A stretch of 64,000 nucleotides of DNA from NCBI GenBank assembly GCA_038064515.1, contig JBBTSY010000007.1, positions 18,249-82,248 on the forward strand. The letters are read 5' to 3'. Source of the stretch: Patescibacteria group bacterium (GTDB lineage: Bacteria > Patescibacteriota > Minisyncoccia > 2-02-FULL-40-12 > GWA2-44-9). Under the pieces are notes generated by a model. It saw nothing but the letters and a program-made list of their open reading frames with translations, was not told where the DNA came from and did not search any database. Shown here piece by piece: positions 4,154-52,200 of this stretch. The stretch's first letter is position 1; each line of letters starts with the position of its first letter. The translations under genes and the position numbers were made by a program.

Positions 4154-4222
4154 GTAGTAACTTGTTCGGAATTGACTGCTCCGCGGGATTAGATATTTTC
4201 ATAGATGAACTTTTGAAATAAT

Positions 4223-4978: not shown

Positions 4979-4982
4979 TACT

Positions 4983-23587: not shown

Positions 23588-24152
23588 GATTTATTTTCAT
23601 TCCAAGCTGTTCCACCCCATCCATCATTAGTTGACGAAGCTTTGCTGTCGTAGTAGTTCCCGCTTGTGCCGGAAGCACTTTGATGTCGCCGCAGTATTGG
23701 AGTAAATTTTTCTTATCGCGATCGGTAAAATCCACGGTTGTTTGAGACATTACCAGTACATCGGGGCGTACAAGTTTTATGAGTTTGTACATATGGTCAT
23801 TTTCATGTCGAGGAGTAACGATATCGACTGCGGTAAGACTGGAAAGAATTTCAACGCGATCGTTAAATGTATCAAAGGGACGTTTTGGTCCTTTTCGTTT
23901 GCGGGTAAGCTCGTCCGTATCTACACCAACTATTAAAATATCTCCACTACTTTTTGCTTGTTCTAAATACCGTTTGTGCCCAACATGGAAAAGGTCATAG
24001 ACGCCCTGCGTGAGTACGATTTTGTACCCAGCATTCTTAAGTGTTTTAATGACTGCGGAAAGGGAAGCATAATCAGGAACATAGTGATGTTCCAATCCTG
24101 GAGTACGACTCACAATGTTCTTTACGATTTGTGAATTGGGCGAAGTGGGCAT
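23457..24152 (-). CDS. Cytidylyltransferase-family nucleotidyltransferase (TagD/RfaE-II-like HxGH enzyme) with low-complexity C-terminal extension
   Basis: The HIGH-type motif is GVYDLFHVGHKRYLEQAK. The TagD-like core runs to TTTAKLRQLM. An Asn/Ser/Arg-rich tail of about 45 aa overlaps the next gene by approximately 100-130 nt in another frame. Confidence 0.75.
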   Translation of the reverse strand: MPTSPNSQIVKNIVSRTPGLEHHYVPDYASLSAVIKTLKNAGYKIVLTQGVYDLFHVGHKRYLEQAKSSGDILIVGVDTDELTRKRKGPKRPFDTFNDRVEILSSLTAVDIVTPRHENDHMYKLIKLVRPDVLVMSQTTVDFTDRDKKNLLQYCGDIKVLPAQAGTTTTAKLRQLMMDGVEQLGMKINLVINEFLGGKNNENSSSVHSGRPQGAPRVLSKDTARRSLRSRQ

Positions 24153-24409
24153 ATGAATAAGTTTAAAATACCATACCCCATACCAATGTACAATTCAAGC
24201 AAAAAAACCACAACTGTTCGTGGCTTTTAGCTATTTTACCTCGATGCCCATATATCGCGCTGTACCCTCAATGAAAACACTGTCAGACATTTTCGCCTTG
24301 GAGGATGTTCTTGTTTGAAGAGCTCCCTCCAAGACGAATATAGCATACTTTACTACCTACATTATAACGCACCCTTAACAGTAAAGCAAATCAAGGGTAT
24401 GGATAACCC

Positions 24410-24571
24410 TTAACGCTTCTTTTTACCCTCTTTTTCCCTCATATAAACAGCATAAGCCCATACTCTGCTAATATTGAATATTTCAGCTAGCTTACTGAAG
24501 GAATATTTTTTAGGGTCTTTGTCTCGAAGTTCAACCAACCTCTTGTTTATCTCTAATTTCGGCTTAGACAT
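24410..24571 (-). CDS. Tiny sigma-70 region-4-like HTH protein (approximately 53 aa), paralog of 26701..26928
   Basis: The internal ATG at 24571 gives MSKPKLEINKRLVELRDKDPKKYSFSKLAEIFNISRVWAYAVYMREKEGKKKR. It aligns with the other small protein (…TLKESGKMFNISPERVRQIIARVLYEL). The longer ORF 24410..24841 upstream of this ATG only translates the repeat DNA. Confidence 0.4.
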   Translation of the reverse strand: MSKPKLEINKRLVELRDKDPKKYSFSKLAEIFNISRVWAYAVYMREKEGKKKR

Positions 24572-24608
24572 TACCCCTATTATAGCATTTACCCCTAACG
24601 ATTCAAAC

Positions 24609-25649
24609 TTATAATTTCCCGTTTGCATGGCCATTTTTGGCGATATAAACAATCCCATTTCCAGGTGGCTTTGCATGGCCATTAGCATCTCCGTTTCCAT
24701 TCGCATGCCCGTTTGCATGGCCATTTCCATTACCAGGAACAGGGGGCTTAACTTCTTTCTGATCCATCTTGTTGCGATATAACTCTTCTCTATCATTTCC
24801 AAAGAGTTGCGTATAAATAAAAGAACTTTGACTATTAGCATGCCCGAGTAGCGATGCTATACCATATGCATTCGTATCCTTGCGAGCCAATTCACGACCA
24901 AAGTGATGTCGACAGGAGTGAGGGTTTAAGGGAATAGCCAAACCTGCCTTGTTAGAATATTTCCTTAAAATCTCTGAGATGAAATTTACCTGTAATATCT
25001 TGCCCTTACCAGGGCAGTTTTTATATCCTCCTTTAATTCCAAAAAAGAGTATTTTGGGGTCAGCTAAGGGAATCTCCTGCGCTAACTCCTCCCTTTTAAT
25101 TAACCACTCGGCAAGAGCTTGATTAGCTTCCTCTCTCCAGAAGATTTCACGATAAGGCACAGTCCCTCTTGATTTCTCTGTCTTAATCCTTGCTGACATA
25201 CGATTCAGATCAATATCCTCTAACCGAAGCGATGCTATCTCGCCGTTACGAGCTCCGCTCTCCCATAATAAAGTTATAATCGCTTTATTACGAACATGGG
25301 TATAACCTTTAAAATCCGAACCAGTCCCGTGATCAGGTATTACAGCAAGGAGTTTTCGGTACTCTTCTTCGGTAGCAACTCGTGGAAATTTAAATGTTTT
25401 TCTGGGTATCGGAATAAGATCGGGATTAAAGACTTTTACGTCTCTATCTTTCAAGAAATCAAAGAGCAACTTTAAGGCAATAGCTTTTTTCTGAACAGCC
25501 TCAAATGCTTTGCAGAATAAATTTTCCGTAGCTCGATATGCAAGATAAGGCTCCGGTGCTTCTGAAAAAAGTTTTGAGAGCGAGCCAATAGCCTTAAGTA
25601 GTCGCTCGTAATACTGCACCTGTTCTTTTGTCTGCGTTTCTATGAACAT
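24609..25649 (-). CDS. Tyrosine site-specific recombinase/integrase (XerC/D-like) with C-terminal Gly/Asn/His repeat tail
   Basis: 346 aa. The catalytic region has LLGHANSQSSFIYTQLF (catalytic Tyr), HSCRHHFG and the R...E core (LWESGARNGEIASLRLEDIDL). The C-terminal approximately 45 aa, GNGNGHANGHANGNGDANGHAKPPGNG..., is encoded by tandem DNA repeats. Confidence 0.85.
   Translation of the reverse strand: MFIETQTKEQVQYYERLLKAIGSLSKLFSEAPEPYLAYRATENLFCKAFEAVQKKAIALKLLFDFLKDRDVKVFNPDLIPIPRKTFKFPRVATEEEYRKLLAVIPDHGTGSDFKGYTHVRNKAIITLLWESGARNGEIASLRLEDIDLNRMSARIKTEKSRGTVPYREIFWREEANQALAEWLIKREELAQEIPLADPKILFFGIKGGYKNCPGKGKILQVNFISEILRKYSNKAGLAIPLNPHSCRHHFGRELARKDTNAYGIASLLGHANSQSSFIYTQLFGNDREELYRNKMDQKEVKPPVPGNGNGHANGHANGNGDANGHAKPPGNGIVYIAKNGHANGKL
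24615..24735. repeat. Imperfect tandem repeats (3 copies of a TTTGCATGGCCAT-containing unit, 42-48 bp period) encoding the integrase tail
   Basis: TTTGCATGGCCAT occurs at approximately 24622, 24670 and 24712, with related TTTCCAT/GCATGCCC sub-units. Both reading frames give repetitive peptides (GHANG... or MAMQTG...). Confidence 0.7.
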
Positions 25650-26607
25650 CGTTAGATTTTGTTTCTAAAGCCTTCTTAATCTGGCGGGCTACCCGTGAGA
25701 TCACGGAGACTGTGACCGAATTTCCAAACTGCTTATAAAGCTTGGTGTCTGGAAGGTCTTTTGGAAGCTTATAGGTTTCCGGAAATCCTTGCAACCTTGC
25801 GCATTCCCTAGGAGTAAGTTTTCTAACGCCCTTATAATCTTTAATTAACGGCACATTGTGCCCTCCTGTCCCCATATTGGCAGTAAGTGTCGGACAAACC
25901 CCGCTCTTATTCTCGCGAACATAAGCTCTTCGCCACTGATATACAGTGCCTTTTGACTGCATTGCTTCCCTCAGTTGTCCATAGAGAGGATGCTTATTAT
26001 AGTAATATCTCTCATCAACGTTTTCGTCAAGAATGTCGGAAACTGTTTTATCAAGAGAAAGCGATTCTGGAAATTCAAATGCGTCGAATTGCTGTTTGGA
26101 TTTGAATCCAACAATATAAATTCTCTCTCTATTTTGAGGAACATTCCCATATTTCGCGCTATTTAAAACCTCGGCTTTTACATGATAGCCCAAATCCGAA
26201 AGCGCTTCAGAAATAATTTTAAAAGTTTTGCCATTATCATGGGATTTAAGATTTTTTACGTTTTCTAGAAAAACTGCTTTCGGCTTTTTATCTCTAAGGA
26301 TTCTAACTATTTAAAAAAATAAATCCCCCCTGCCGGTATCAAGAAACCCTCTTCGGTATCCAGCGATTGAGAAGGGTTGGCACGGAAATCCACCGAGAAG
26401 AATATCAAAATTCGGCAAGTCAGAACTCTTAACTTTTGAAATATCCGCAACAGTAAGCGGAGTTCCCTTAAAGTTGAGATCATAGGTCGGCTTGCAATAC
26501 GGATCAAAGTCATTGGCAAAAACAGTCTCAAATCCGGCTCTTTTAAAGCCTATTCTTATGCCTCCAATTCCTGCAAACAAATCAATGGTTTTGAGTGAAT
26601 TGCTCAT
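25594..26607 (-). pseudogene. C5-cytosine DNA methyltransferase (Dcm-like) interrupted by a single in-frame TAA (26313..26311)
   Basis: The N-terminal ORF 26311..26607 has motif I DLFAGIGG and motif IV GFPCQPFS. It ends ...RGDLFF*. The same frame continues directly as IVRILRDKKPKAVFLENVKNL... (motif VI ENV), then the target-recognition and C-terminal motifs (RKLTPRECARLQGFP, YKQFGNSVTV). The stop sits where a Glu is expected in the LFFEivR motif. Confidence 0.75.
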
Positions 26608-26700
26608 ATTTAAATCATAACAAGATTACCCATAAAAAGCAGCCTCGTTTTTATAAGCTTATCCACATTCTACCTCGAAAGGCTCGGTTTGTCTGCCTTT

Positions 26701-26928
26701 TTACTTAATTAACTTTTCCAATTCATAAAGAACTCTGGCTATAATCTGCCTGACTCTTTCCGGACTGATATTAAACATCTTTCCACTTTCCTTGAGGGTA
26801 TGGGGCTTATCATCTATTCCATGACGAAATTCAAATATCCTTATATACCTGGGCTTGAGATTAAGACGATTTCTGACCTTTTTATACTGTTCGATCATTA
26901 AAAATTTTTCGAAAGCCCAAGTAATCAA
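26701..26928 (-). CDS. Small sigma-70 region-4-like HTH protein (75 aa)
   Basis: RYIRIFEFRHGIDDKPHTLKESGKMFNISPERVRQIIARVLYEL resembles the sigma70 region 4.2 HTH, which binds the -35 element. No region 2 or 3 is present. It is the last gene of the MoxR/VWA operon strand. Confidence 0.5.
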   Translation of the reverse strand: MITWAFEKFLMIEQYKKVRNRLNLKPRYIRIFEFRHGIDDKPHTLKESGKMFNISPERVRQIIARVLYELEKLIK

Positions 26929-27020
26929 TCAAGTACCAAGGCTCCAAGTTCCCAAGTCCCCGATGAAACTACCGAGCGGGGCAGACGCCGAGAGTGGAAT
27001 CCGAGTTGCCACGCGAATCG
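26897..27020. repeat. 124-bp direct repeat copy 1 (3' end of paralog A + 3'UTR CCAAG array); identical to 29589..29712
   Basis: Exact nucleotide identity by inspection. Similarity continues with a few mismatches for approximately 65 bp into the coding region. Confidence 0.85.
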
Positions 27021-27907
27021 TAGTCGACGTGGAGACCGCCCGAATCGAAGCCACCAGCGCAGACGAAGCTGCCGTCGGACGACTGCACGGCTGACCAATC
27101 CCATGTTCTTTCTAAGAGAGACTCCTTATTAGCACCGTAATATGTAATGGTATCATAAACTACCTCAGTAGGAGTTCTTCTTCGTACAGAATTCGGATCT
27201 ATTCCATTTTTCTTAGCCCATTCTTTAAGAACCTCTTCTTGCTGGTCCCAATTTTTACTAAGAGATTCCGGTAAAACTGCTTTAGCGGCCAAACCCCAGC
27301 CTAATTTAGTAGTATCTTCTAAAGAAAACTTTTCCTTGTCATGCCAAGCCTCGCCTTTTTTATAATAAAATATTTTATTCTTTTTCTTTGTAGGATCCCC
27401 GAGCTTATCTTCGCCCTGCATTACCTCCCGCATCCTGTCTATGCTTAAAGGTTTTCCTTCCTTATCATGAGGAACTCGAAGCACCAGCATCATACCCAGG
27501 GCTTTTGCCTGTTCTAATTCTTCCCTGCTGAAAGGTATATTTTCTATTTGGCTTGCTTCTTCAGGCGTTAATTTAATGCCCCAGGTTTTTTCAACTGCCT
27601 CCGGACCAATAAAATCTTTTTCCAATATTTCCCTAGCTTCTCTGAAATCTAAACGGGCCTCCGGAGAAGCAAGTTTTTCCAATTGCTGAAGCTTTTCAAG
27701 CGCTTGGCCTAAATCATTATTAGCAAAAGCTTCTTGAACTCCTTTTGCCAACTCAATAGATTTTACTTTTAGCTCGGCCTCTTCACGCTCTTGCTGTTCT
27801 CTTTCTTCAATCTCTCTTTGAGCCGAATCTTTTTCCTTCTTTTTGCCAGCACTTTTGGATTGTTCGCCTTTCCAAAAAGCTTCAAATTGTGGTTTCTCGG
27901 ACGACAT
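26969..27907 (-). CDS. Hypothetical protein, paralog A (312 aa) with conserved approximately 40-aa Cys-containing C-terminal module
   Basis: Charged coiled-coil-like N-terminus. The central region is shared with paralog B (…KNWDQQEEVLKEWAKKNGIDP…). The C-terminus is VQSSDGSFVCAGGFDSGGLHVDYDSRGNSDSTLGVCPAR. The gene lies 3 nt downstream of the MoxR gene. Confidence 0.6.
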   Translation of the reverse strand: MSSEKPQFEAFWKGEQSKSAGKKKEKDSAQREIEEREQQEREEAELKVKSIELAKGVQEAFANNDLGQALEKLQQLEKLASPEARLDFREAREILEKDFIGPEAVEKTWGIKLTPEEASQIENIPFSREELEQAKALGMMLVLRVPHDKEGKPLSIDRMREVMQGEDKLGDPTKKKNKIFYYKKGEAWHDKEKFSLEDTTKLGWGLAAKAVLPESLSKNWDQQEEVLKEWAKKNGIDPNSVRRRTPTEVVYDTITYYGANKESLLERTWDWSAVQSSDGSFVCAGGFDSGGLHVDYDSRGNSDSTLGVCPAR

Positions 27908-27909
27908 AA

Positions 27910-29562
27910 TTATAATTCGGAGATAAGTGTAGCTAAATAAGTACGCTCTTCTCCTAGTGGAATTTTAGGAAGCACAACCTCTTGAACTGCCTTTTTAGCC
28001 TTGGTCATACCCCTTCTCTTTTCTTCTTCAGTAATAACCATGGCCGGCAATTCGTAAGCGCACTCAACAGATTCACGCAAGCTAAAAACGAATTTAATCG
28101 GTTCATCAGATTTGCCTTCATGGTACGCCCTATAAGCTCCCCTGATTTTATTTGCAATTTCAGCCACTTCCTTTATATCCTCAATCTGTTCTTTTACGGA
28201 AGCAGTAAGCAAATCAGCTACTTTGGGGTTTGCCTTATTATTGGCTACCGCATCCCAAAGCATTTGGAATTCTTCAGGAGTAAAATCTTTAAGATCGGGG
28301 ACATACTGGCGCAAGATTAAAGCCTCGTCCGATCTGAATTCGATTTTATCATTCGGACCTTTTCTTTCCTTCTCAAATGGAGGGTATGTGACCTCCATGA
28401 TTCGGGCTCGAGATTTGATCGTTTCCGCTAATGGTTTTACGCCCATATAGTGCTGTGGGTTTTCCAATCCTACCAATAAAACTTCTTCTGCGGCTTTTAC
28501 TATATTCTTATCTTCTCCTAAATATATAGCGCGGTCATGGTCAAATAAAGAATTGAGAATCTTCGCAACTTCCGGTTTAAGGGTATTGATTTCGTCAAAT
28601 TCGAGAATAGCACCTGGCGTTTCAAGAGCTTCTATAACCGTAGACTTGATTCTGTAGGTTCCCCGCTTGGAATCATACTCAAGAAGATACTTAAAGTCCT
28701 GTTCATCCTTTCCTGCAGAACAAGTAAATCTAAATAACGGCCTCTGGGTTAAATAGGCAAAGTGATCAATAATTTTATTCTTTCCAGTACCGGCATCGCC
28801 TTCCAATATAACAATACCCTGACCGCGCTCACGCTGGCGATTAACTAATTTAGTAAATTTCTCCATTGTCTCAACCACATGCGGAGTCTCAACAAAGTTT
28901 GGATCACGGCTAAGGACATCTTTAGCTCCTTCGGTAGCTAAACCATTAAGATGCCTCAAGGCTCTGAGCACCCATTCTGAATCAGGATGTTTTTCTTTTA
29001 ACTCTTCGAAATAGTGCTTGGCCGATTCTTGTTTTTCCGGATCATCGCTGGAAAGATTCTGTACGGCCTCTAAATATCCTGACCTCTCTTTCTTTAATGC
29101 CTTATAATCGCTCAGGGGTAGATATCTGTCCTTTTCTCCAAATCTTACCTTGCCCTGCGAATTGCCTCCTGGCTTAATCTCTACGCCGTCATTCCTTTTA
29201 AAGGATATCTCTACCATGGTTTGGCCTTGTTCTCGAAACTGTTCACCTTCTACATCCCAAAGAAGTTTCTCTCCTTTCGGCTCAAAGACTGGTGTAGATT
29301 CTTGGCCGATGCGCACTTCCTTAGCTCCTTCAATGGGCACGATCTTTTCTTTTTGCTTTGCGTGCACCTCCAAAAACTCTGAAACCTCCTGGGTCTTGCC
29401 CTCAACATCAACCTGCTTAAGAAGTTCCTTTGCTTCCTCCGGTATTTTGCCGGATTTTAAAAGCTCGGCCTTAATCGCCTCAATTCTCTCAAGACGGTCC
29501 ATGTCGTCTGGACGAAAGGCTTTAAATGATTCGACTGATGGCATAGGAATTCGTTCTTTCAT
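27910..29562 (-). CDS. MoxR-type AAA+ ATPase (AAA_5/CbbQ/RavA-like) with long N-terminal extension
   Basis: 550 aa. Walker A-like GDAGTGKN is present, with Asn where Ser/Thr is usual. Walker B is ILEFDEIN. The sensor/arginine region is VGLENPQHYMGVKPLAETIKSR, typical of the MoxR family. The N-terminal approximately 250 aa is charged and of unknown fold. Confidence 0.85.
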   Translation of the reverse strand: MKERIPMPSVESFKAFRPDDMDRLERIEAIKAELLKSGKIPEEAKELLKQVDVEGKTQEVSEFLEVHAKQKEKIVPIEGAKEVRIGQESTPVFEPKGEKLLWDVEGEQFREQGQTMVEISFKRNDGVEIKPGGNSQGKVRFGEKDRYLPLSDYKALKKERSGYLEAVQNLSSDDPEKQESAKHYFEELKEKHPDSEWVLRALRHLNGLATEGAKDVLSRDPNFVETPHVVETMEKFTKLVNRQRERGQGIVILEGDAGTGKNKIIDHFAYLTQRPLFRFTCSAGKDEQDFKYLLEYDSKRGTYRIKSTVIEALETPGAILEFDEINTLKPEVAKILNSLFDHDRAIYLGEDKNIVKAAEEVLLVGLENPQHYMGVKPLAETIKSRARIMEVTYPPFEKERKGPNDKIEFRSDEALILRQYVPDLKDFTPEEFQMLWDAVANNKANPKVADLLTASVKEQIEDIKEVAEIANKIRGAYRAYHEGKSDEPIKFVFSLRESVECAYELPAMVITEEEKRRGMTKAKKAVQEVVLPKIPLGEERTYLATLISEL

Positions 29563-29588
29563 AATTTATTTATTTTTTACGATTATTT

Positions 29589-29712
29589 ATTAAAAATTTT
29601 TCGAAAGCCCAAGTAATCAATCAAGTACCAAGGCTCCAAGTTCCCAAGTCCCCGATGAAACTACCGAGCGGGGCAGACGCCGAGAGTGGAATCCGAGTTG
29701 CCACGCGAATCG
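29589..29712. repeat. 124-bp direct repeat copy 2 (3' end of paralog B + 3'UTR)
   Basis: Identical to 26897..27020. Confidence 0.85.
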
Positions 29713-30740
29713 CGGTCGACGCCGAGACCGTCCGAATCGAAGGCACCAGCGCAGACGAAGCTGCCGCCGGACGACTCTGTTTTCGACCAATCGTAATCCC
29801 TTTCTAGTAAACGTGCTTTCCTGGCTTCGTAATAAGCCAGGACATCATAGATTGTTTCAATCGCCTTTCTCCTGCTTACAAACTTGGGGTCGACCTTGTG
29901 TTCCTTCGCCCACTCCTTCAATACTTCTTCCTGCTCATCCCAATTTTTATCCCTAGTTTCTTCAAGAAGCTCTTTCTTGACAATACTCCAGGCAAGCTCT
30001 ATTACTTCTTCAGTAGCAAACTTCTCCTCATCATACCAGTCCTGGTCATAAAATAAAGGAAACTTTTTTCTTAAATTCGCAATAGTTCCCATCGCTTCTT
30101 TACCTTCAAGCATTACTTTAGGCGATCGCAAGACAACCATAAAACCCTCCTTCTTTAACTGTTCAAGAGATTCTTTTGTCAGTCCCTGCTGGCGAACTTT
30201 TTCTCTCCACTTTTCAGAAATTAATCTAAGCTCTTCCTGATTAAATTTACGACCACTGAATTTTTCAGCCTCTTCAATTCCTAAAAAGTCTTCCTTAAAG
30301 ATTTCCTTCAACTCTTTAAGCTCTCTGACTTCTCCCATCTCCGGAGTAATCTGGTTCTGTATTTTCTCAAGAATTGCTAAAGCTCCTGGAATATCGTCTT
30401 TCGCAAAAAGTTCTTGAGCCTCTTTAGCTAATTCTGTAATTTGTCTTTCCTGTTCCTGGCCAAGGGTAATTTCTACAATCATCTTGCCTTGCATTGAATC
30501 TCCTGGCTTCGAATCTTCAACTATGCGAACCCTATACGCTCTCCCTGCTTCCGGAACTTGGGAAGACTGGCTAAGTATAATTATTTTTCTGTCGGGAGAG
30601 CTGTTGCGATATTCTATTGTCCCATCTTTCTTGCTAACCTCCGAAAATACAATATCTTCCAGAATTTTCTCCTGTGGTTCAGTTTCCAGCCTTTTCTCTG
30701 GTTTTTGGCCTATTTCGGGCCTAAATTGTGGTTTTTCCAT
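29661..30740 (-). CDS. Hypothetical protein, paralog B (approximately 359 aa from ATG 30740) with the same C-terminal module
   Basis: The start was trimmed to MEKPQFRPEIGQ, which parallels paralog A's MSSEKPQFEAFW. The C-terminus is ESSGGSFVCAGAFDSDGLGVDRDSRGNSDSTLGVCPAR. The last approximately 50 nt of coding sequence plus approximately 75 nt of 3'UTR are identical to paralog A at the DNA level. Confidence 0.6.
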   Translation of the reverse strand: MEKPQFRPEIGQKPEKRLETEPQEKILEDIVFSEVSKKDGTIEYRNSSPDRKIIILSQSSQVPEAGRAYRVRIVEDSKPGDSMQGKMIVEITLGQEQERQITELAKEAQELFAKDDIPGALAILEKIQNQITPEMGEVRELKELKEIFKEDFLGIEEAEKFSGRKFNQEELRLISEKWREKVRQQGLTKESLEQLKKEGFMVVLRSPKVMLEGKEAMGTIANLRKKFPLFYDQDWYDEEKFATEEVIELAWSIVKKELLEETRDKNWDEQEEVLKEWAKEHKVDPKFVSRRKAIETIYDVLAYYEARKARLLERDYDWSKTESSGGSFVCAGAFDSDGLGVDRDSRGNSDSTLGVCPAR

Positions 30741-30907
30741 GGTGGTATTGACAAGTTGTATATATTTTGCTATAATGGCTATAGAAACTTTAACAAGTCG
30801 GGGAGGAGCGGTTAGCCACACCGTAACCTCCAAAAAGGAGATCCGGCCCACCTTGTCCTAGCCACGGACGAGGAGCCACCCAGCCTCTATTAAAAATAGG
30901 GACTTTT

Positions 30908-33067
30908 TTATTTGCTCTCCGACCTTTCAAATTTCTGCAACTGCTTCTCTAAAATTTTTAATAACGATTGGGGCAGTTTCTGAATATCTGGAACTGGCAG
31001 TCCATTTTTATCATAATACTGTTTTATGGTTCTTTCCATACCTGGTCCAATACCTATTCCAATCAAAGGAATCTGTTTCGTCCATTTTCTAACTATTTCA
31101 CGCAACTCCCATTCTGATCCCGCATGGCGCGAACTTGGCGCCGGCTGTCCGTCAGAAAATACAATTAAGGCACCCGAAGCATCATTCTCTAATAATCTTT
31201 TCTGGAGACGTCTTGCCGCGCTGTCTACTGCAAAGCCATCGTCATTATATTGGGCACCCGATGACTTTACTTCTTTAAGCACCCTCATAATCTCCAATTT
31301 CTTTTTGCCAAAGTAGTTCTCATCAAATCCCTTGAGCTCGAGGAGTTGGGCATGAAAAGCCAATATTTCAAAAGGTACCCCTTTTTGTGAAAATGCCTCG
31401 GCCATTAAAATAGCTGCCTTCAATGCTTCCTGAATTTTTTCTCCATCCATGCTTCCGCTTACATCAACTAGCAGAGAAAAGGCAACGGCTTTAACCTCCG
31501 GTACATCTTTACGCTCAAAAAATCTGCCTTCTTGAGTGGGAATTTCCCTGGCAAGCTTTCGCGGATCAATTCTTTTACCGCGCCTATACCCGCCCTCCCA
31601 TTCCGCTTCTTCTTGAGGAGGGAAGACCTCATCGAGACGCTCAACAAGCATGCCGACATATTTTTTAATCTGAGAGTAATAAGCGTCATAGCGCTCCCTC
31701 TCCTCTTTAGTGAGGCCCGTCATTCTTTCTTTAAGATTTTCCTGAGTTGCTTCTAAATTCTTTTGAACTTCGCTCTTCGCTTGCTGGATTTGCTCTTGGC
31801 GCTTCTTCTCTCTTTCCTGGTATTCTTTCTCTTCCTCCAATGCCTGCTCAATATCCTCCTGGGTCACCATCTGAACCTGAATCTCCATGGTACCATCTTC
31901 ATTTTCTTTCATTTCAACCGATTTCGGCTGAAGCTGTTTGGTAAACTCTCTTTCTTCCTCGTCAAGTTTTTCTCGAGCTTTCTGCCTATATTGGTCCTTC
32001 TCTTCATCAGAAAGTTCGTCCCAATTTTTTTGACCGCCTTCTTTCTGCTTGCCGGCCTCCTCTTGTTTTTCTTGAGGCTCGCCTTTTCCTTCCTGATCTT
32101 CCTGTTTCTCTTTTTGGCTTTGATCCTGCTCTCCCTCCTCTTCTTTAGATTCTTGTTTTTGCTGTTCCTGGCCTTGACCGCCTTGCTGCTGTTGCTTATC
32201 TTGGGCATGCTGTTTCTGAGCTTCTTCCTCAATGTATTTATCAATTAATTCTTTAAATACTGGCCAGCCCTTTTCCCACATAACTTCTTTAAATGCTCTT
32301 CTACCCTTTGATTCATTAAGATATTCATCAAGCACTCCTTCAGTCTCCCCAAAAGCCTTTAATACTTTCTCGTCCTTGATCTTTGATTTCATTTCTTCAA
32401 AATCAAAATCTTCTATGAACGGCTCTGCTCCTTTTGCCCAGCAAAGAAGGCCGTACTGAATAGGCAAAGATTTCTTTTCAAAGTCATGCAATAAAGCCTG
32501 GGCGATATCTTCTTTTAAATATGCTCCCAAGCGGTGACGTGCCGTTCTGGATGTCTGGCCTTCCTGATTATTCGATCTGCCATCTTCCCAAGCATCGTAA
32601 ATTGTAAAAAGGTCTAACGGTTTATAGCCTTCCTGCTTGGCCAATTCTTGAGATTCCAATAGAGACTGATAATCGGAATGTTTGATATGGCCCATCTCAT
32701 GACGAAAAACTCCAAAGATATAATCTTCACTTCTTTCCAACAAATCTTGCTCCGGATAAGTCATGACCTCAGGTACTAGCAGTTTTTCATCAAAATCTTC
32801 CAAGCTTTTTTCTGGATGTTTTCTCCTCTCCTCTTCAAATTTCTTTGAAAGTCCAGCAGCCCAGCCCTGACCAGGAATAAGATTCAAGTTAAAGTTCTTG
32901 GAAAGATTTTTAGTCACGAACCGCAACTTATCTTTTAGCTCCTGAATTTCGTGAGGGCTTCTTTTCCTCCCCGCCTCCGGCTTCTCTGACATAGGATGAA
33001 AAGCAGACTCTAATTCAGGTCTTTCGTGCTGAGACTTAGGTTGTGGCTCAAAAGACTCTTTGCTCAT
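30908..33067 (-). CDS. HExxH metallopeptidase-like N-domain + Gln/Glu/Lys-rich linker + C-terminal von Willebrand factor A domain protein (DUF2201-like MoxR partner)
   Basis: 719 aa. RHEMGH lies at residues approximately 122-127 (coordinates approximately 32687-32704). A long QQQGGQGQEQQKQESKEEEGEQ... low-complexity coiled-coil region follows. The VWA domain has the MIDAS motif DVSGSM plus downstream FSDG. This is the first gene of the operon. The architecture is the kind that is normally paired with MoxR AAA+ ATPases. Confidence 0.8.
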   Translation of the reverse strand: MSKESFEPQPKSQHERPELESAFHPMSEKPEAGRKRSPHEIQELKDKLRFVTKNLSKNFNLNLIPGQGWAAGLSKKFEEERRKHPEKSLEDFDEKLLVPEVMTYPEQDLLERSEDYIFGVFRHEMGHIKHSDYQSLLESQELAKQEGYKPLDLFTIYDAWEDGRSNNQEGQTSRTARHRLGAYLKEDIAQALLHDFEKKSLPIQYGLLCWAKGAEPFIEDFDFEEMKSKIKDEKVLKAFGETEGVLDEYLNESKGRRAFKEVMWEKGWPVFKELIDKYIEEEAQKQHAQDKQQQQGGQGQEQQKQESKEEEGEQDQSQKEKQEDQEGKGEPQEKQEEAGKQKEGGQKNWDELSDEEKDQYRQKAREKLDEEEREFTKQLQPKSVEMKENEDGTMEIQVQMVTQEDIEQALEEEKEYQEREKKRQEQIQQAKSEVQKNLEATQENLKERMTGLTKEERERYDAYYSQIKKYVGMLVERLDEVFPPQEEAEWEGGYRRGKRIDPRKLAREIPTQEGRFFERKDVPEVKAVAFSLLVDVSGSMDGEKIQEALKAAILMAEAFSQKGVPFEILAFHAQLLELKGFDENYFGKKKLEIMRVLKEVKSSGAQYNDDGFAVDSAARRLQKRLLENDASGALIVFSDGQPAPSSRHAGSEWELREIVRKWTKQIPLIGIGIGPGMERTIKQYYDKNGLPVPDIQKLPQSLLKILEKQLQKFERSESK

Positions 33068-33384
33068 TTAGGTATTGGGATTATATAAGTTCATTCTAAG
33101 TGTTAAGGGTATAAAAAGCAAACTTGCCTATCGGCTCATTTTCTGCAATAATGGTGGCGAGTCTTGTTAATAGAGATTAGGCTAAGGTTTAATCTTATGG
33201 GTCTCCTTTATTCATTCCTCACCAGAGTTCTTATGGCTACGGCTATAAGAAGTGGCGTGACCGGATATCGTAAGAGAGATGAAACTACGTGTTTTGTTTC
33301 AGTGTAGGTACTCCAGATTCGCATCGGGAGTTGCTACCAAGTAAAATTCAGGAGATGTTTCCTTTTTGAAACTATCCAGTGGCC

Positions 33385-33537
33385 ATGAGGCGATTACAGA
33401 GGGGACAAAACACCAAGGTGCAGTCGTCCGACGGCAACTTCGTCTACGCTGGTAACTTCGATTCGGACGGTCTCAACGTCAACAACGATTCGCGTGACAA
33501 CTCGAATTCCAATCTCGGCGTCTGCCCCGCTCGGTAG
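33385..33537 (+). CDS. Orphan small ORF (50 aa) consisting essentially of the conserved C-terminal module; inverted relative to the paralogs
   Basis: MRRLQRGQNTKVQSSDGNFVYAGNFDSDGLNVNNDSRDNSNSNLGVCPAR*. The last 52 nt match the paralog 3' ends with about 3 mismatches on the opposite strand. The hairpin AAGAGCCTTC-caaat-GAAGGCTCTT follows the stop at approximately 33560-33585. It is too short for the ORF track. Confidence 0.35.
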   Translation: MRRLQRGQNTKVQSSDGNFVYAGNFDSDGLNVNNDSRDNSNSNLGVCPAR

Positions 33538-33792
33538 TATTATCTATCTTCCTCTGCTAAGAGCCTTCCAAATGAAGGCTCTTAGTTTAATCCCGACTGG
33601 ATTTAATCCAGCCCCCAAGCATTTTACCGATTTCTTGGATATAGCCCTGACAGTAAATATAACGCTTCTCGTTTAAAATCTTTAAATCCGATAAAAGCCT
33701 TATAAATACCTTGAGCATATCCACTTTCTAGGGTTATAATCTGCCGATATAAGCTCTTTAATTTTTACTTGGGTTATTTGCATAAATATAGG

Positions 33793-33814
33793 TTATCCAC
33801 TTTTTTATCCACAA
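33793..33814. promoter_or_regulatory. Pair of DnaA-box-like 9-mers (TTATCCACT, TTATCCACA) in an AT-rich 300-bp noncoding stretch
   Basis: TTATCCACA is the consensus DnaA box. The two boxes are 13 nt apart and adjacent to the 3' end of a replication-organizer-like gene. Confidence 0.35.
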
Positions 33815-33856
33815 AGTTATCTAATAATAATTTCTCTTTGTTTCTCTAATACATTG

Positions 33857-34282
33857 TCAGTACGGAAGCCGTACCGCTTTTGGTCTAGTTTCCCTACCAA
33901 TTCTGGTATGTTTTCTGTACTGGTTCACTTTCCGTACTACCTCGTCCGCGACCATGGAAAGATTGATTTCATAGCAGTTGCCACGGAAGTCTTTTCGGAC
34001 CAGAATCGCTCCGGCCTTTGTAAGATTCGAAAGCGATTCGCTGACTACCGATCGCGACAATCCCGCGCCAAAGTCCAGGATTTTTCCATCCCTTGTCTTA
34101 ATGCCTTTCATAAATTGAGTGAAGCTGATCCGGTCCACCTGCTTGTGAAATCCGAACGTGCGCCGGCAGATATACAGAAGGCATTTGCCCTCGCCTTCCG
34201 GTATTAGAGGCAGAATCTTATCCAAAATAAGGTTGGGTATCTGAGTGCTATTGGGTATAAGATGTCTGTTTTCCTCTGGCAT
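33857..34282 (-). CDS. Phage/plasmid-type replication organizer-like winged-helix protein
   Basis: 141 aa. LLYICRRTFGFHKQVDRISFTQFMKGIKTRDGKILDFGAGLSRSVVSESLSNLTKAGAILVRKD resembles the N-terminal wH DNA-binding domain of phage replisome organizer/DnaD-like proteins. It was preferred over the overlapping + strand ORF 33854..34207. Confidence 0.5.
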   Translation of the reverse strand: MPEENRHLIPNSTQIPNLILDKILPLIPEGEGKCLLYICRRTFGFHKQVDRISFTQFMKGIKTRDGKILDFGAGLSRSVVSESLSNLTKAGAILVRKDFRGNCYEINLSMVADEVVRKVNQYRKHTRIGRETRPKAVRLPY

Positions 34283-34388
34283 GGTTTAAGCGCAATTGGG
34301 ACTAACTTTCGTTAGTCTTTGTTGCTATTAGACAGCTTTCCATTCCTGCCCCTCATGCTCTCGCGGTGAGGAACAGGATCGAAAGCCG

Positions 34389-34622
34389 TTAGCTGATGAT
34401 GTTAATTAACCTCTCGTTCTCCAGGAATGATTCGGATTTCAGAAGGTAATCCCCGTCATAGATATTGTTGTACTCAATATCGTATTCGTAGATTGCCGCC
34501 TTCTCGAAGTTTTCAATCGCCTCCATGATCTCGTCCATGGTTGGTGCTGATGCCAACTCTTCTTCCTGATCAGTTCCTGTAAATGCCACGTACCACTTAT
34601 CGGTTCGCGTGGACCTGGCCAT
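34389..34622 (-). CDS. Hypothetical small acidic protein (77 aa)
   Basis: ORF only. It lies between the AAA_24 gene and the replication organizer on the same strand. Confidence 0.3.
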   Translation of the reverse strand: MARSTRTDKWYVAFTGTDQEEELASAPTMDEIMEAIENFEKAAIYEYDIEYNNIYDGDYLLKSESFLENERLINIIS

Positions 34623-35739
34623 TTCCTTTTCCGGGTCCAGCCTTGGCTTTCGTGCGTTCGGCTTTCTCCATCTCTTTCTGCTCGGCTTTCAATGCTTTTT
34701 GGACAAACTCTTGGATTTTGACAAATCCTCTTTCGAGCATATCCGGGTGCATCTGCTCAACTGCCGTCCAGCTTCCAGTATTGAAGCCGTACATAACCGC
34801 ATCAATCTTGAACTTCTTTGATTGAGCATCTTGGCCAGGCTTAACCTGGACCAGGTATGATTCAATCTCTTCAAGAATGATCTTCTTTCGCTTCCTGAAC
34901 ATTTCTTTATCATCTTCGGTCTTGAACAGATCACGCGCATCGCGTTCTCCGACTGTCGAGAGCTTCACTGGTGAATCAAGCATAACTTCGATAACCGGGG
35001 CAAAGTCCTCGTATGTCGGATCTTCGAAAGTCTTGCCATCAAGTACCGTAGATCGGTCCTTAATGATCGTGGCCCGTCTTGAAACTGATTTAACTGTGCT
35101 ACCTTCCATCTCCTGCAACCGTTCCATAAGCACGAGCAAATCAGGCTCGTAGGCGGTTTCGCCTTCAACCTTCATCTTTACGCCTGACTTGTAGATTTCA
35201 CGCTTGCCGGTATCGGCATTAACCTCGTTCTCATATTCGTATCCGGCGCGACCGCACATGACAACATGATACGGATCGCCGACGAACAGATCGCTGAATT
35301 CGGTTTTCCATGTCGGCTTAATGATTCCCCAATCTTGGAATTCAAGTCTTAATTTGGCCGACTTGCCGTACTTAGTCGGAGCTTGCTTGTATGATTCCAG
35401 AAAGTTCTCCCATACATGGGATATTGAATCAATGATCAAGATATCGCTGAAGCCTTCCCGCATTCGGGTCATGGTCTCCTTCAAGTCAGCCAAAGACTTG
35501 GACTCTTTCACCAGTAATTCGATTCCCTCTTGGGCGAATAGTGGCTTTAAGAACTTCGACGCCTTTTCGGTATCGAAGATAATAACTGGCTTTGTTGATC
35601 CTATCCTCTTGTATAAACCAACAGCTATTTTAGCTGCGGTATACGTCTTACCTGTTCCAGCAAAACCCTCAAAGGCCGCTTTGAAATACGGCTTGGTGTT
35701 TGCTACCGGAACGAAGAAATTATCTTTGTTCATTTGCAT
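34597..35739 (-). CDS. Phage-associated RecA-fold ATPase (AAA_24/Sak4-like)
   Basis: 380 aa. Walker A is GFAGTGKTYTA, and a Walker B-like IIFDTE is present. The size and architecture match the AAA_24 family common in phage replication/recombination modules. The C-terminus is Lys/Glu-rich. Confidence 0.7.
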   Translation of the reverse strand: MQMNKDNFFVPVANTKPYFKAAFEGFAGTGKTYTAAKIAVGLYKRIGSTKPVIIFDTEKASKFLKPLFAQEGIELLVKESKSLADLKETMTRMREGFSDILIIDSISHVWENFLESYKQAPTKYGKSAKLRLEFQDWGIIKPTWKTEFSDLFVGDPYHVVMCGRAGYEYENEVNADTGKREIYKSGVKMKVEGETAYEPDLLVLMERLQEMEGSTVKSVSRRATIIKDRSTVLDGKTFEDPTYEDFAPVIEVMLDSPVKLSTVGERDARDLFKTEDDKEMFRKRKKIILEEIESYLVQVKPGQDAQSKKFKIDAVMYGFNTGSWTAVEQMHPDMLERGFVKIQEFVQKALKAEQKEMEKAERTKAKAGPGKGNGQVHANR

Positions 35740-35901
35740 TGCCAGAGAATATTTGCTAAAGTAACTTTAAGTTTGTGAAACGTCCCGAAAGGGCCGTTTT
35801 GCTTTTTATTCTCTGAGTTCATAGTTTTTAGTAATTCGCATCGGTGGGTTTGTTTTTTACCCAATATCGCTGGGTTACGTTCGACCTAAGGCGAAAACGA
35901 A

Positions 35902-35935
35902 AAACACCGTGTTTTGACGGTGTTTTCATTGTTTT
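35902..35935 (-). terminator. Rho-independent terminator downstream of rplK
   Basis: On the minus strand, AAACACCG-tcaaaaca-CGGTGTTT is followed by TTCGTTTTCG. Confidence 0.5.
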
Positions 35936-35964
35936 ACTGGGTTTTTGCGAGTTCGTGGGGCCTT

Positions 35965-36387
35965 TTACTCTACGCTAATCCCCATGGAACGCGCGGTGCC
36001 CTCGACGATCTTCATCGCGGCGTCGACGTCATTGGCGTTCAGATCAACCATCTTTTTCTCGGCGATTTCCCGAACCTGAACTTTAGTGACCGTGCCAACT
36101 TTTTTCTTGTTTGGTTCGCCGGAACCTTTTTCAATCCCTGCGGCAACGCGCAAAAGGTATGCCACTGGAGGAGTCTTGAGCTTGAATTCGAATGTACGAT
36201 CTTCAAAGATCGTGATTTCAATAGGCGTCACTTCGCCCATCTTGTCTTTGGTTGCCTCATTAAACTGCTGGACAAATTGCTGAAGATTAATGCCGTGAGG
36301 ACCCAGGGCGGTACCAACCGGTGGCGCCGGTGTTGCTCGGCCGCCTTCGATCTGTAATTTTACCACTGCTTTTATTTTTTTTGCCAT
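35965..36387 (-). CDS. rplK: 50S ribosomal protein uL11
   Basis: 140 aa. The N-terminus is [34 protein letters not shown]. Confidence 0.95.
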
Positions 36388-36391
36388 GATT

Positions 36392-36937
36392 TTATAACTT
36401 TTTTATCTGTAAGAAGTCCAGCTCGACGGGCGTTTCGCGGCCAAAGATTGTAACAAGCACTTTGACCCTTCCCTTCTCCGGATCAACTTCGGCAATCTTG
36501 CCATCGAAGTCCTTGAACGGACCGTCCGTGATCTTTACGCGATCGTCCACGGCAACATCAAGCTGATACTTCGGCTCTTCCACGCCCATGCGCTTGACCA
36601 AAGAATCAACCTCATCTTTCGAGAGCGGCGTTGGAACTGTACCGGCGCCGATAAAACCGGTTACATTCGGCGTATTGCGCACGACATACCATGAATCATC
36701 ATCGACAAGCATTTCTACCAATACATAACCCGGGTAGATCTTTTCTTCAATAGTCTCGCGCTTGCCGTTTTTGATTCTTATCTTTTTTTCCTTCGGGACG
36801 AGAACATTAAAAATCTTATCCTCAAAGCCAAGCGACTCAACGCGCTGCATGAGATTGCGAGCAACATTATCTTCATAGCCTGAATAGGTGTGGATAGCAT
36901 ACCAAAGACGTTCTGCAGTAGAAACTTGTTTAGGCAT
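36392..36937 (-). CDS. nusG: Transcription termination/antitermination factor NusG
   Basis: 181 aa. The NGN domain is [18 protein letters not shown] motif ([19 protein letters not shown]) is present. Confidence 0.95.
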
Positions 36938-48663: not shown

Positions 48664-49248
48664 CTACATGACCTCATACAGGAAGCGCAAGGAATTTAAG
48701 CGGAGGCTGAAAGTGTATTCATAGATAGTATCGAGTGGAGAGGGAAAGGTGGCCCCGCCATAACGGGGTCCCGCTGAGGCGGTGGCCACTGGGATTACCG
48801 GGAGTTGAGAGGCGTAACCAAGCACATTTAAGAAATCGGCTTGTTTTTCCCGAAAAAATGGCATCAGCGCTGATGCGTCCGCGGCATCCAGCTCAATTAA
48901 AAGCCTATATAAAAAGTTCCAGAGCTTTTCATCTTTCTGATTATCATAAGCGACGCGGTCGATAACTTCAAAGAAAAAATAGGCCACTGCCTGATGCGCC
49001 AATGATTTTCGAATGTGGCTGAAAGTATTCTCACTTTGAGCGCCGGTAATGATCGGCGTGGCGCGGCCATTTATTAAATCGAAATCGACAAGATTTAAAA
49101 CATCCAGATGCATCCCCTGAATCGAACTTTCTTTCAGAGAACTTTTAGCGATCGCAGTCAGTTTGCCCCACTCCTGGCTGTAGCAAGTAATAAGCTGGTC
49201 ATATTCCTTCGTCATCTGCTTTTTGATGATAATCGCTTTCGTTCTCAT
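48664..49248 (-). CDS. recO: DNA repair protein RecO-like (short form)
   Basis: 194 aa. The N-terminal OB-fold pattern (MRTKAIIIKK...EYDQLITCYSQEWGKLTAIAKSS) is consistent with RecO. The gene lies upstream of ileS. Confidence is moderate. Confidence 0.55.
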   Translation of the reverse strand: MRTKAIIIKKQMTKEYDQLITCYSQEWGKLTAIAKSSLKESSIQGMHLDVLNLVDFDLINGRATPIITGAQSENTFSHIRKSLAHQAVAYFFFEVIDRVAYDNQKDEKLWNFLYRLLIELDAADASALMPFFREKQADFLNVLGYASQLPVIPVATASAGPRYGGATFPSPLDTIYEYTFSLRLNSLRFLYEVM

Positions 49249-52200
49249 TTTTTAATGCCGATCCAGATTTTTTTACCGGGCGCGAGCTTGATTTCTTCTT
49301 CTACATCATATGCACGATCTGCTTTAGGCTGCCGTAATAATTCGGAAAGCACGGTATCCGTTTTGATTGCGACGGACCATTCGGTGATCGCATTTGAAAG
49401 AGCGGCATCTTCACTGTGCCAGTATGCCACGACTTCCTCATCAAAACGATAGCCGGCATCCTTGCGCATATCCTGGATCTGGCGCATCATCTCCCGCGCA
49501 TATCCTTCCGCGCGCAATTCGTCGGAGATTGCGAGATCAAAGCTCAACTTGGCTTCGGCAGGCAAGCCTGCTTTTTGATAGCGGATGTCTTTTACATTTA
49601 ACTCATCCTTAATCAATGCCTCGAGACCCGGATCAAGCGGATCGCTAGGAATAATCACCGCTTGGAGCGGCTGGCGCACTTTAAGCTGTTCGTTCTTGCG
49701 CAGGGCCAGCCCCTGTGTCACGAATTCCTGAATTCGGATCATCGCAGATTCCAATTCGCTGTTCACCATTTTCACATCGCCAATCGGCCAGCGTTGGAGG
49801 TGGACACTTTCTGTACCCTCGCTTTGTCCGCCAATACGCGCATAGATATCCTCGGCGGTATAGGGCGCAAACGGAGCGATCATTTTGGTCACCTCAAACA
49901 ACAAGTATCGCAACACACCGATCGCTTCTGGTCGGTTACGGGAACGGCGGAGCCACCATTTAGAGAGATCATCAATCACGAATTTCTCGATCATACGGGC
50001 GGCGGTTGTCGGATCGTACGCATCCATCCGTTTAGTAGCTTCTAAAATAGTTCGATTAAGCCGCGAAAGCATCCACTGATCGAGCACCGTCGGTTCCTGT
50101 TCCTGGCCCCGCCTTGGCGGGAGTTTTTCATAGAGTTCATAAAAGCGGACGCAGTTTTCAAGGGTAGTAAAAAAACCTTTGAGTCGTTCTTGCGCGTCTT
50201 TAAGAGTCACCACCGTGGATTCCCCTGGCATGTTGGCGGTATAGAAGTACCACCGCGTAGCATCAACGCCGACGGCATCCATGAATTCATCGGGAGCGAT
50301 GACGTTGCCTTTAGATTTGGACATTTTCTTTCCATGCTCATCGAGAGTATGACCAAGCGATATTACATTCCTGTAGGGAGCGCCCTTATTCAGGAGTGTC
50401 GAAATCGCCAATAAGGTATAGAACCAGCCGCGAGTTTGATCTACCGCTTCCACGATAAAGTCTGCCGGGAATTGCCTCTCGAATATTTCCTTATTTTCAA
50501 ACGGCCAGTGCCATTGGGCGTACGGCATACAGCCGGAATCAAACCAGACATCGATGAGATCGGGTACTTTATACATCGGTCCGTCGCATTTCGAGCACTT
50601 TAAAACAATTTCATCCACGTATGGCCGATGGAGATCAACGTCACCCTGGTCATTGTAAGGATAGTTTGGCAGGGTCGCTTTCATGTACGTCCCCTGCTTG
50701 AGATAGATTTCTGATTTTTTCGCGAGAGTGTCCGCGTCGTCTCGGTTCATCATTGCGCTGGCAAGAATCCAGAGCGGGTCACCGTGACTGATAATGAGGA
50801 TATTTTTGCCTTCGTATTTTTTATCCAGTTCCACTACAACCGCCATCATGCGGGCTTTAACATCGCGCCAACTGTCACCATCTCCGCGCCTGGCATCCAT
50901 TGCCACGATAGTGCCTAGTTGCTCGACACATTGAGCATGTGTTTTTCCCTCACACGCCAATCCGTGCTTTATTTCGCCTAGCCGCTCATCAGTTTCTACA
51001 GGAATACCCAGAACTTCAGAGATAATCTTTGCCGTACCTTGGGTACGCTTGAAAGGTGACACAATGATAATGCCGATTTTTTCTTTTTTTAATTTATCAG
51101 CCATATCCGCTATCTGCTTCCGCCCTTCGTCGTTAAGTTCATAAATATCATATTCACCGGTATACGAATTGATAATCATATTCTTCTCGACGCTTCCGCG
51201 ATCGGTAAGCCCATGACGCGCCAAAATAAATTCATTTGGCTTCTTAAAGCGATTTTTTTTCAAATCATCGAGACTCCCCGCAACGCGATATGTTTCACAA
51301 TCGGCATTGGCGCATTGCCATACCGGCAGGGGCGTCCCCCAGTATCGTTCGCGAGAGAATGCCCAATCTTTGCCTTCTTTGATCCACTGTCCAAAGCGGC
51401 CCTCCTTTAAATGGCTCGGAATCCAGTTAATCTGATCGTTGTTTTTTAAAAGCTGCTTATTCACCGCTGACATTTTGATAAACCAGGATGTCTTGGCATA
51501 ATAGATCAGCGCAGTGTCACAGCGCCAACAGAATGGATAATCGTGCTCATACTCCTCCTCTTTGAAGAGCGTGCCGGTGGCTTTCAGTTTCGCAAGAATT
51601 ACTTCCGTAGTCTTGGCGGTTTTTACATACATGCCGTCCAGATCAGAGCTTACGCCGATAAATTTGCCCTGCAGATCTACCGTGTGCACTTTTGGTAAAC
51701 CAAGCTCCGTGCCCAGAGCATAATCATCTTCACCGTACATCACCGCGGTATGCACGACGCCGGTACCGTCCGTAGTAGAAACAAACGGCGCGGCATAAAT
51801 ATGGTAGGACTTCTCTGATTTCAGTTGCGATACATCAAAGAGAGGTTCGTATTCAAGTCCCACAAGATCATTGCCGTCTATAAAACCCAATTCTGCCCCA
51901 TCAAATTGCGGGAAAACTTTTAACAACAAATCTTTCGCTAAAATATAAGTTTCTTCGCTATCTTTTGGTTTTATCTTTACGTACCTGATATCCTTCCCTA
52001 CGGCCAAGGCGACATTTCCCGGAAGCGTCCAAGGAGTGGTGGTCCACGCAAGTATAAAGGTGTTCTCCGAAAACTTGTCATTCTTGGTGAGTTTAAATTT
52101 TAGGTAAACGGAATTCTCCTTGACCAGCTTGTACCCTTGGGCCACTTCATGCGATGAAAGTCCGGTCCCGCAACGCGTGCAAAAAGGCACCACGCGATGC

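Follow-up and report, generated by a model that had tools for sequence, protein, structure and literature searches.

A probable diversity-generating retroelement target array without its own reverse transcriptase, with AAA_5 ATPase and zincin-VWA partners, from a groundwater Patescibacteria genome

Diversity-generating retroelements (DGRs) are already known to be abundant in Patescibacteria and to be linked to AAA ATPases and MoxR-vWA systems. According to a passage in PMC10907252 that cites Paul et al. 2017, a common target of the Patescibacteria elements is a fusion of a lectin fold with an AAA ATPase, and published surveys describe cytoplasmic DGR targets of Patescibacteria that have neither a recognisable domain nor a membrane anchor. 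DGRs that diversify MoxR-vWA systems have also been published (PMC7159879, PMC10907252). The closest described systems are the CPR (Candidate Phyla Radiation) and DPANN lectin-AAA DGRs ('DGR clade 2'; Roux et al. 2021, PMC8144416) and, in cyanobacteria and gammaproteobacteria, the VMAP ternary conflict systems (Kaur et al. 2020, PMC7159879; Dore et al. 2024, PMC10907252). Here we describe a locus on a Hainich groundwater contig that belongs to a Patescibacteria metagenome-assembled genome (MAG). The stretch analysed, hereafter the window, comprises 64,000 nt of contig JBBTSY010000007.1 and contains genes for two paralogous proteins, A and B, an AAA_5 (MoxR/CobS-like) ATPase and a VWA protein with a zincin-like N-terminus. 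This locus is very probably the target array of a DGR.

The evidence that carries this reading lies in three copies of one sequence. A first-pass annotation, made from the sequence alone, had noticed that both paralogs end in the same module of about 40 residues and that a third, inverted copy lies at the far end of the locus as an 'orphan peptide' with its own hairpin. The shared tail is present, but it is not a feature of the proteins only: the two paralog tails belong to a common 188-nt direct repeat of 96% identity that takes in 72 identical non-coding bases past the stop codons of both genes, and the repeat is therefore one of DNA and not merely a protein module. The tail of paralog A corresponds to variable repeat 1 (VR1; 26969–27088, minus strand), which comprises the last 39 codons and the stop codon, and the 3' end of the paralog B gene to variable repeat 2 (VR2; 29661–29776, minus strand). 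The third copy, the template repeat (TR; 33418–33537, plus strand), was also found as annotated, within a 52-codon open reading frame (ORF) that starts with GTG (33379–33537). The arms of the resulting inverted repeats measure 127 and 123 nt and are 90% and 88% identical, far beyond chance.

When the three copies were aligned in the coding orientation of the tails, over a core of ~116–120 nt, all mismatches between VR1 and the TR (11/11) and between VR2 and the TR (13/13) fell at TR adenines. With 24 A in the 120 nt of the TR, the probabilities of these outcomes by chance are ~2e-9 and ~3e-11, respectively. The TR and both VRs have no non-adenine difference at all over about 120 nt. Adenine-confined mismatches are the defining signature of DGRs; the tails are the variable repeats, and the 'orphan', at whose adenines alone the copies differ, serves as their template repeat rather than as a gene for a peptide. 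The variable sites of the paralogs correspond to N, D or Y codons in the TR (AAC, AAT, GAC, TAC). The coding adenines of the TR number 23 and are spread over 15 codons, among them 8 AAY Asn codons, and with this AAY/GAY design none of the 15 adenine codons can be mutated to a stop, while ~4e13 peptides can be reached. The TR and VRs share a GC-rich end and diverge 2–4 nt past the stop codon; the shared 24-nt end has no exact match among the GTDB species representatives, which do not include the source MAG. At the sequence level, the locus is thus what is defined as a DGR target array, and it has neither an adjacent reverse transcriptase (RT) nor an intact Avd.

The two target proteins have no match in Pfam, NCBIfam or PHROGs. 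Both are confidently modelled as a C-type-lectin/formylglycine-generating enzyme (FGE) fold, of which the tail forms the last β-strands (predicted local distance difference test score, pLDDT, ~97 over the tail). In the predicted structure of target A (26969–27907, minus strand; 312 aa), a long N-terminal helix precedes the lectin/FGE-like fold, which ends in VR1. Target B (29661–30740, minus strand) has 359 aa from its ATG, as in the NCBI annotation, and ends in VR2; the mechanically called ORF has 396 aa from a GTG at 30851. The paralogs are 44% identical, and B carries an extra N-terminal insert. No hydrophobic segment, transmembrane segment or signal peptide was found in any protein of the cassette, and the targets are predicted to be cytoplasmic.

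The gene order VWA protein, paralog B, ATPase, paralog A and a small helix-turn-helix (HTH) protein, all on the minus strand, as well as the motifs RHEMGH, DVSGSM, GDAGTGKN and ILEFDEIN, were found as the first-pass annotation had given them. The ATPase (27910–29562; 550 aa) matches Pfam AAA_5 (3e-19), its best profile matches include the CobS-like phrog_249, and no more than 2 nt separate its stop codon from the paralog A start. Its Walker B motif (FDE, within ILEFDEIN) is intact, and its Walker A motif (GTGKN, within GDAGTGKN) has Asn in place of Ser/Thr. This substitution is real and conserved in the closest ortholog: GTGKN is also found in the ortholog of locus L006, with GSGKT at L001 and L003 and IGKT at L019. 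The VWA protein (30908–33067, minus strand; 719 aa) consists of a zincin-like N-terminal part with the HExxH motif (RHEMGH, residues 122–127), a 186-residue E/Q/K-rich linker and a CobT-like VWA domain (VWA/CobT_C, 1.7e-11) with the metal-ion-dependent adhesion site (MIDAS) motif DVSGSM. The HExxH motif and a downstream acidic ligand lie within a zincin fold, as expected of a zincin, and 19 homologs all keep the MIDAS residues D535, S537 and S539. The protein is closest to CobT-like families, with a CobT-type score of 33.6 bits against an equivalog cutoff of 759; the scores of the ATPase and VWA domains against the CobS-like and CobT-like families all fall far short of the equivalog cutoffs. 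The VWA and AAA_5 genes share one strand, and the gene set is conserved among cassettes. Pfam searches assigned no VMAP-type or other domain to the remaining cassette proteins.

Paralog A has 153 homologs, and nearly all of those with a named source come from Patescibacteria. The relatives reveal a conserved cassette with a 350-aa RVT_1 RT that contains IGNLTSQ and YADD, an overlapping divergent 124-aa bAvd, a TR on the RT strand, and two to three paralogous targets among which stand genes for an AAA_5 ATPase and a VWA protein of 660–730 aa. In the orthologs, the order is RT (−), Avd (+) and TR (−), followed by the VWA-zincin, targets and AAA_5 (+), and the RT and bAvd genes adjoin in L001, L003–L007, L009 and L012–L017. 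A scan of species-representative genomes yielded 15 further loci, seven of which (L009 and L012–L017) have the same RT/Avd/TR/targets/VWA order; AAA_5 is present in six of these seven and absent from L015. Overall, the module co-occurs with AAA_5 and VWA-zincin homologs in almost all cassettes, which bears out its expected association with such pairs elsewhere. The adenine signature recurs in the relatives: mismatches at TR adenines account for 11/11, 12/12 and 17/18 of those in the three VRs of L001 and for 7/7, 12/12 and 16/17 in the three VRs of L003. Against NCBIfam DivGenRetAVD, the Avd of L006 reaches 91.9 bits, above the cutoff of 80. At L006 and its sister locus L007 (3207–10915), the cassette lies between rpmI-rplT and infC with no directly adjacent recombinase; a serine recombinase is found ~3 kb downstream of the L007 cassette. 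The cassette-type RT has 7979 homologs at E<1e-30, which include thousands of Patescibacteria RTs, with the closest one from a different sample. L011 keeps three targets, AAA_5 and VWA, and its RT is reduced to a 44-residue fragment (9441–9572), so that RT loss is a recurrent event.

In two distant cassettes, the ATPase and the target form one polypeptide, which argues for a functional tie between them. L019 (9902–12016) and L020 (6808–8907) encode AAA_5-lectin target fusions of ~700 aa, next to a HExxH-VWA protein, Avd and RT. The N-terminus of the fusion is AAA_5 (Pfam, 1e-13), and paralog A can be aligned with the last 260 residues (34% identity, E 3e-39). The fusion protein is itself a DGR target, with 19/20 mismatches at A (10/10 for the other repeat of L019). 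In the neighbouring VWA protein, HEGSH aligns weakly (BLASTP E=0.04) at the position of HEMGH. The studied locus shows a split form of the lectin-AAA fusion architecture.

The TR and the VRs are followed by different elements. Past the TR, the hairpin that the first-pass annotation had assigned to the third copy is indeed present, with a 12-bp stem (33557–33585, plus strand) that starts 20 nt past the TR and lies between it and an Avd remnant. Its DNA folding energy (dG) is −15 kcal/mol (z = −5.4), and 0/200 shuffled sequences fold as well. A perfect hairpin of 12–21 bp stands 15–25 nt past the TR in L001, L003, L006, L009, L012, L014–L016 and L035; the sequence differs from locus to locus with the pairing kept, and the hairpin always precedes the convergent Avd gene. 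VR1 is followed by a non-coding element (26897–26968, minus strand) composed of five to six CTTGR motifs with a period of ~8 nt, which ends in TTCGAAAAATTTTT, and the element that follows VR2 (29589–29660, minus strand) is 100% identical to it. The consensus of this VR-flanking element (~70 nt) reads TTTC..CTTGGG.GCTTGGATTCCTTGATTCTTATTGGTTCCTTGGG..TTCGAAAAAATTTT. It is found past every VR in L001, L003, L006, L009 and L011–L016 and never past TRs. No stable structure was predicted for the 3' flanks of the VRs, and the CTTGR-repeat element may replace the hairpin/cruciform as the target-recognition signal of these DGRs. A role of the element as the promoter of the next gene was considered and rejected, because it also follows terminal VRs that have no cassette gene downstream. 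A search of positions 24000–36500 against Rfam at gathering thresholds returned zero matches.

The part of the cassette that would encode the mutagenic enzymes is missing from the studied locus. In tblastn searches with three Avd proteins, residues 79–124 of the 124 were matched (67–72% identity, E about 1e-18) and nothing upstream, which leaves an Avd remnant of 46 codons (33590–33727, minus strand) convergent with the TR. No RT was found in the 64-kb window by tblastn with three RTs (best E about 1), nor any YxDD in an open frame. The place expected for the RT and the 5' part of avd is occupied by a Phage_rep_O gene and a Sak4-like AAA_24 ATPase gene. On four short contigs from other samples (L030–L033), this AAA_24-RepO module is 94–98.7% identical and aligns exactly down to 33721, beyond which a ParB (ParB_N) gene replaces the DGR cassette. 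As the homology breaks there, the RT and the first 78 Avd codons were lost through a rearrangement at ~33721, which spared the TR, its hairpin and the Avd stub. The junction of the window is reproduced at 100% identity in three other read sets. Without an adjacent RT and an intact Avd, the locus is non-autonomous.

Despite this loss, homing at the locus appears to be recent, judging by closely related strains. For either paralog, the 90%-identity cluster includes a single variant that comes from another well. That of paralog A shows no difference over residues 1–275 and has 12 differing residues in the tail, and the differences of the paralog B variant (P0167) lie mainly inside the VR2 region. 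Between L025 and the window there are 20 differences in 4278 nt (99.5% identity), 14 of which are in VR1, 13 of these 14 at TR adenines; at four of the VR1 differences, one strain has regained the template A. Variants that sit at TR adenines, with the template A regained, point to renewed homing and not to point mutation. The variant strain's contigs stop within the cassette, short of the RT/Avd region.

A potential source of the missing enzymes was found by extending the sequence 10 kb past the window edges (locus L035, whose coordinates equal the window coordinates plus 9763). A second, complete DGR lies at 3689–6284 of L035, that is, on the same contig, 3.5–6 kb left of window position 1 and ~38 kb from the studied TR. 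Its RT, of 411 aa and with LGNLTSQ and YADD, shares 47% identity with that of L006 and is overlapped by a divergent Avd gene (RT and Avd together at 3689–5181); a TR (5188–5285) and a 207-aa target that ends in '...WWFAGVRK' complete the element, with 10/11 mismatches at A. The 16-nt stretch common to the 3' flanks of the two TRs is the antisense of the Avd codons for 'MLGGW'. We consider it an evenly balanced question whether RT and Avd are supplied to the studied locus in trans, most simply by this second DGR.

The comparison with described systems places the locus among known DGR associations and sets it apart from each of them. The CPR/DPANN lectin-AAA DGRs belong to the same phylum and the same RT family, their targets likewise have no Pfam domain or membrane anchor, and the exact AAA_5-lectin fusion is present in L019 and L020 of the same target family. 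In contrast to these elements, the ATPase and the lectin protein of the window are encoded by separate genes 2 nt apart, and the locus has two stand-alone targets and a constant zincin-VWA partner and has lost the RT and most of Avd. The VMAP ternary systems likewise combine MoxR, VWA and a DGR-diversified FGE/lectin protein in an operon, with cytoplasmic targets, and some of their variants have stand-alone targets beside MoxR and an HTH gene in the place of VMAP. The locus is nevertheless not a VMAP ternary system, because there is no VMAP protein and no vWA-lectin fusion. It also differs from these systems in the N-terminal zincin domain of its VWA protein, in its RT type, which is that of Patescibacteria and not clade 5, and in its host, a small-genome episymbiont and not a multicellular bacterium. 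The DGR targets TvpA of Treponema denticola and Mtd of Bordetella phage BPP-1 have a lectin fold like the window paralogs. Unlike in those DGRs, Avd in this cassette type is antisense between the TR and the RT, the VRs are followed by the CTTGR-repeat element rather than by a predicted hairpin/cruciform, and the targets of the window are cytoplasmic and not a tail fibre or lipoprotein, with no RT at the locus. Finally, an AAA_5 gene beside a HExxH-VWA gene is also a trait of the MoxR and metallopeptidase-vWA pairs that jumbo phages carry (Iyer et al. 2021, PMC7824862), as well as of CobS/CobT-like pairs from phages or bacteria. Only the VWA domain aligns with the phage proteins, at 24–30% identity, and neither kind of pair has a DGR or a lectin-fold partner.

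The surroundings of the cassette are those of an integrase-bearing element, in agreement with the first-pass annotation. The HTH protein (26701–26898, minus strand), with a Pfam Sigma70_r4 match, has 65 aa from the ATG chosen by gene callers, within a longer frame (26701–26928). Its gene was not found in L009–L023 and is not annotated in L001, L003 and L006; as the orthologous cassettes lack it, it is probably part of the surrounding integrative element. Next to it, a C-5 cytosine DNA methylase (25594–26193 and 26311–26607, minus strand) is split into two ORFs, of 98 aa for the N-terminal part and 199 aa for the C-terminal part; L025, the variant strain, has this split as well. Imperfect 12-nt repeats, which code for NGHA-type motifs, make up the C-terminus of the tyrosine integrase (24609–24760, minus strand). 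Farther along the window, a 1154-aa class I tRNA synthetase (49245–52709, minus strand; tRNA-synt_1, Anticodon_1) has a His_Phos_1 domain inserted at residues 495–657. It is followed by two adjacent plus-strand ORFs (53287–55226) that together look like an IucA/IucC siderophore synthetase in two pieces, with an FhuF-like domain, a pair unexpected in a minimal Patescibacteria genome; they lie in a low-GC block (GC 0.33–0.37 at 54–60 kb) and are followed by genes for GTP cyclohydrolase II and arginyl-tRNA synthetase (ArgRS).

With the locus read as a DGR target array, the TR RNA is copied into cDNA with random substitutions at template adenines, and the mutagenised cDNA overwrites the last ~40 codons of both paralogs. 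The overwritten codons diversify the ligand-binding C-terminal face of the cytoplasmic lectin-fold proteins. The AAA_5 fusion and the co-occurrence of the genes suggest that the targets act as recognition modules of AAA_5; that the variable proteins are recognition subunits which feed the MoxR-type ATPase and the VWA-zincin is a proposal we make tentatively, judging it somewhat short of probable. The targets would bind a changing intracellular ligand and hand it over, or signal, to the ATPase and its VWA partner. The VWA protein would capture a partner through its MIDAS site and the ATPase would remodel that partner, as is general for MoxR-VWA pairs (PMC7159879), and the zincin domain fused to VWA would be the likely effector. 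The same sensor logic has been proposed for DGR-diversified MoxR-vWA conflict systems (PMC7159879, PMC10907252).

Other explanations of the repeats and of their neighbours were weighed against this reading. The first-pass annotation had proposed that the HExxH domain sets the tail free as a Cys-containing peptide, or that the tail is a degron or tag by which proteins reach the MoxR/VWA machine, with the orphan ORF as a free copy. Three module copies do lie beside HExxH-VWA and AAA_5 genes, and some MoxR-vWA systems are accompanied by peptide-processing zincins (PMC7159879), but we regard this proposal as highly improbable: the copies differ only at the adenines of the orphan, the tail is integral to a high-confidence lectin/FGE fold, and in orthologs an RT and Avd accompany the orphan copy. 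Nor is the orphan conserved as an ORF, given that the template copy of L006 has no terminal stop codon and that the reading context of template copies varies. The paralogs instead fall in a well-characterised class, the variable proteins of DGRs. An arrangement of inverted repeats of 123–127 nt, 3.6 and 6.3 kb apart, with an integrase gene 1.3 kb from the locus, would also suit shufflon-like switching, in which the tyrosine integrase inverts the DNA between copies and swaps the C-termini of the paralogs. This possibility has next to no credibility and was rejected, because the mismatches are adenine-specific, the orphan has no upstream coding segment that could be swapped, and all assemblies show one orientation only; moreover, orthologous cassettes keep the repeats, RT and Avd despite different recombinases or none. 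A different role for the targets is that of attachment, to a host cell or in the manner of a phage receptor-binding protein, with the MoxR-VWA-zincin set as an assembly or maturation chaperone, a role proposed for the MoxR-VWA type in the archaeal virus ATV and in jumbo phages. For the DGR targets of Patescibacteria, attachment is what is usually proposed (PMC10221324), the MoxR and metallopeptidase-vWA pair of jumbo phages has been proposed to act in virion assembly (PMC7824862), and the cassettes adjoin recombinases, RepO and a Sak4-like ATPase, in L006 also a terminase. We nonetheless consider it unlikely, since no cassette protein carries an export signal or membrane segment, the island has no structural phage genes, the target has no homolog among 50,697 phage records, and the L006 cassette is set between ribosomal protein and infC genes as described above.

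The alternative to which we grant the most room is that the array is a dead relic, in which RT and Avd have been lost, the VRs are frozen, and the VR differences between strains are older than the deletion. The loss of the enzymes, the similar state of L011 and the identical junction in three other read sets favour this view, and we hold it possible, if doubtful. Against it stand the freedom of the TR and VRs from any non-adenine difference, the full identity of the two VR-flanking elements, which speaks against long neutral decay, and the complete DGR RT and Avd on the same contig. Several observations in turn weigh against a DGR target array that is still active and serves a MoxR-type machine. 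The window contains neither an RT nor a complete Avd, which deprives the element of autonomy, and the strain differences in the VRs could predate the deletion. The RT on which supply in trans would depend shares no more than 47% identity with the cognate type, and the 3' flanks of the two TRs have the 16-nt stretch and the place of the hairpin in common and little else. Folding predictions did not give the canonical hairpin/cruciform that other DGRs have downstream of their VRs. As to function, the fusion evidence comes from distant relatives whose AAA_5 parts cannot be aligned by BLASTP, the Walker A Asn makes the ATPase competence uncertain, and no PADLOC defence model was matched by any cassette protein.

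What had appeared to be a 'peptide-processing' operon thus becomes a clear case of targeted hypermutation. Three features of the locus merit notice, namely the constant zincin-VWA partner, the RT-less and recently diversified state beside a second DGR, and the VR-flanking repeat. The RT-less locus near a second DGR is a natural test case for trans-acting DGR enzymes, and the repeat conserved beside the VRs may be a new homing signal. The constant AAA_5 and zincin-VWA partners of the targets, together with the fusions, give a concrete hypothesis for the function of Patescibacteria DGR targets. Taken jointly, the locus might be a DGR-reprogrammed adaptor-protease machine, with an RT-less array mutated in trans and the CTTGR element in place of the hairpin as the homing mark of the VRs; that all of this holds at once seems to us improbable. 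If true, the adaptors would direct a MoxR ATPase and a VWA-tethered zinc protease to changing intracellular targets, such as proteins of invading phages, and the minimal-genome Patescibacteria would gain an anticipatory recognition-and-destruction system.

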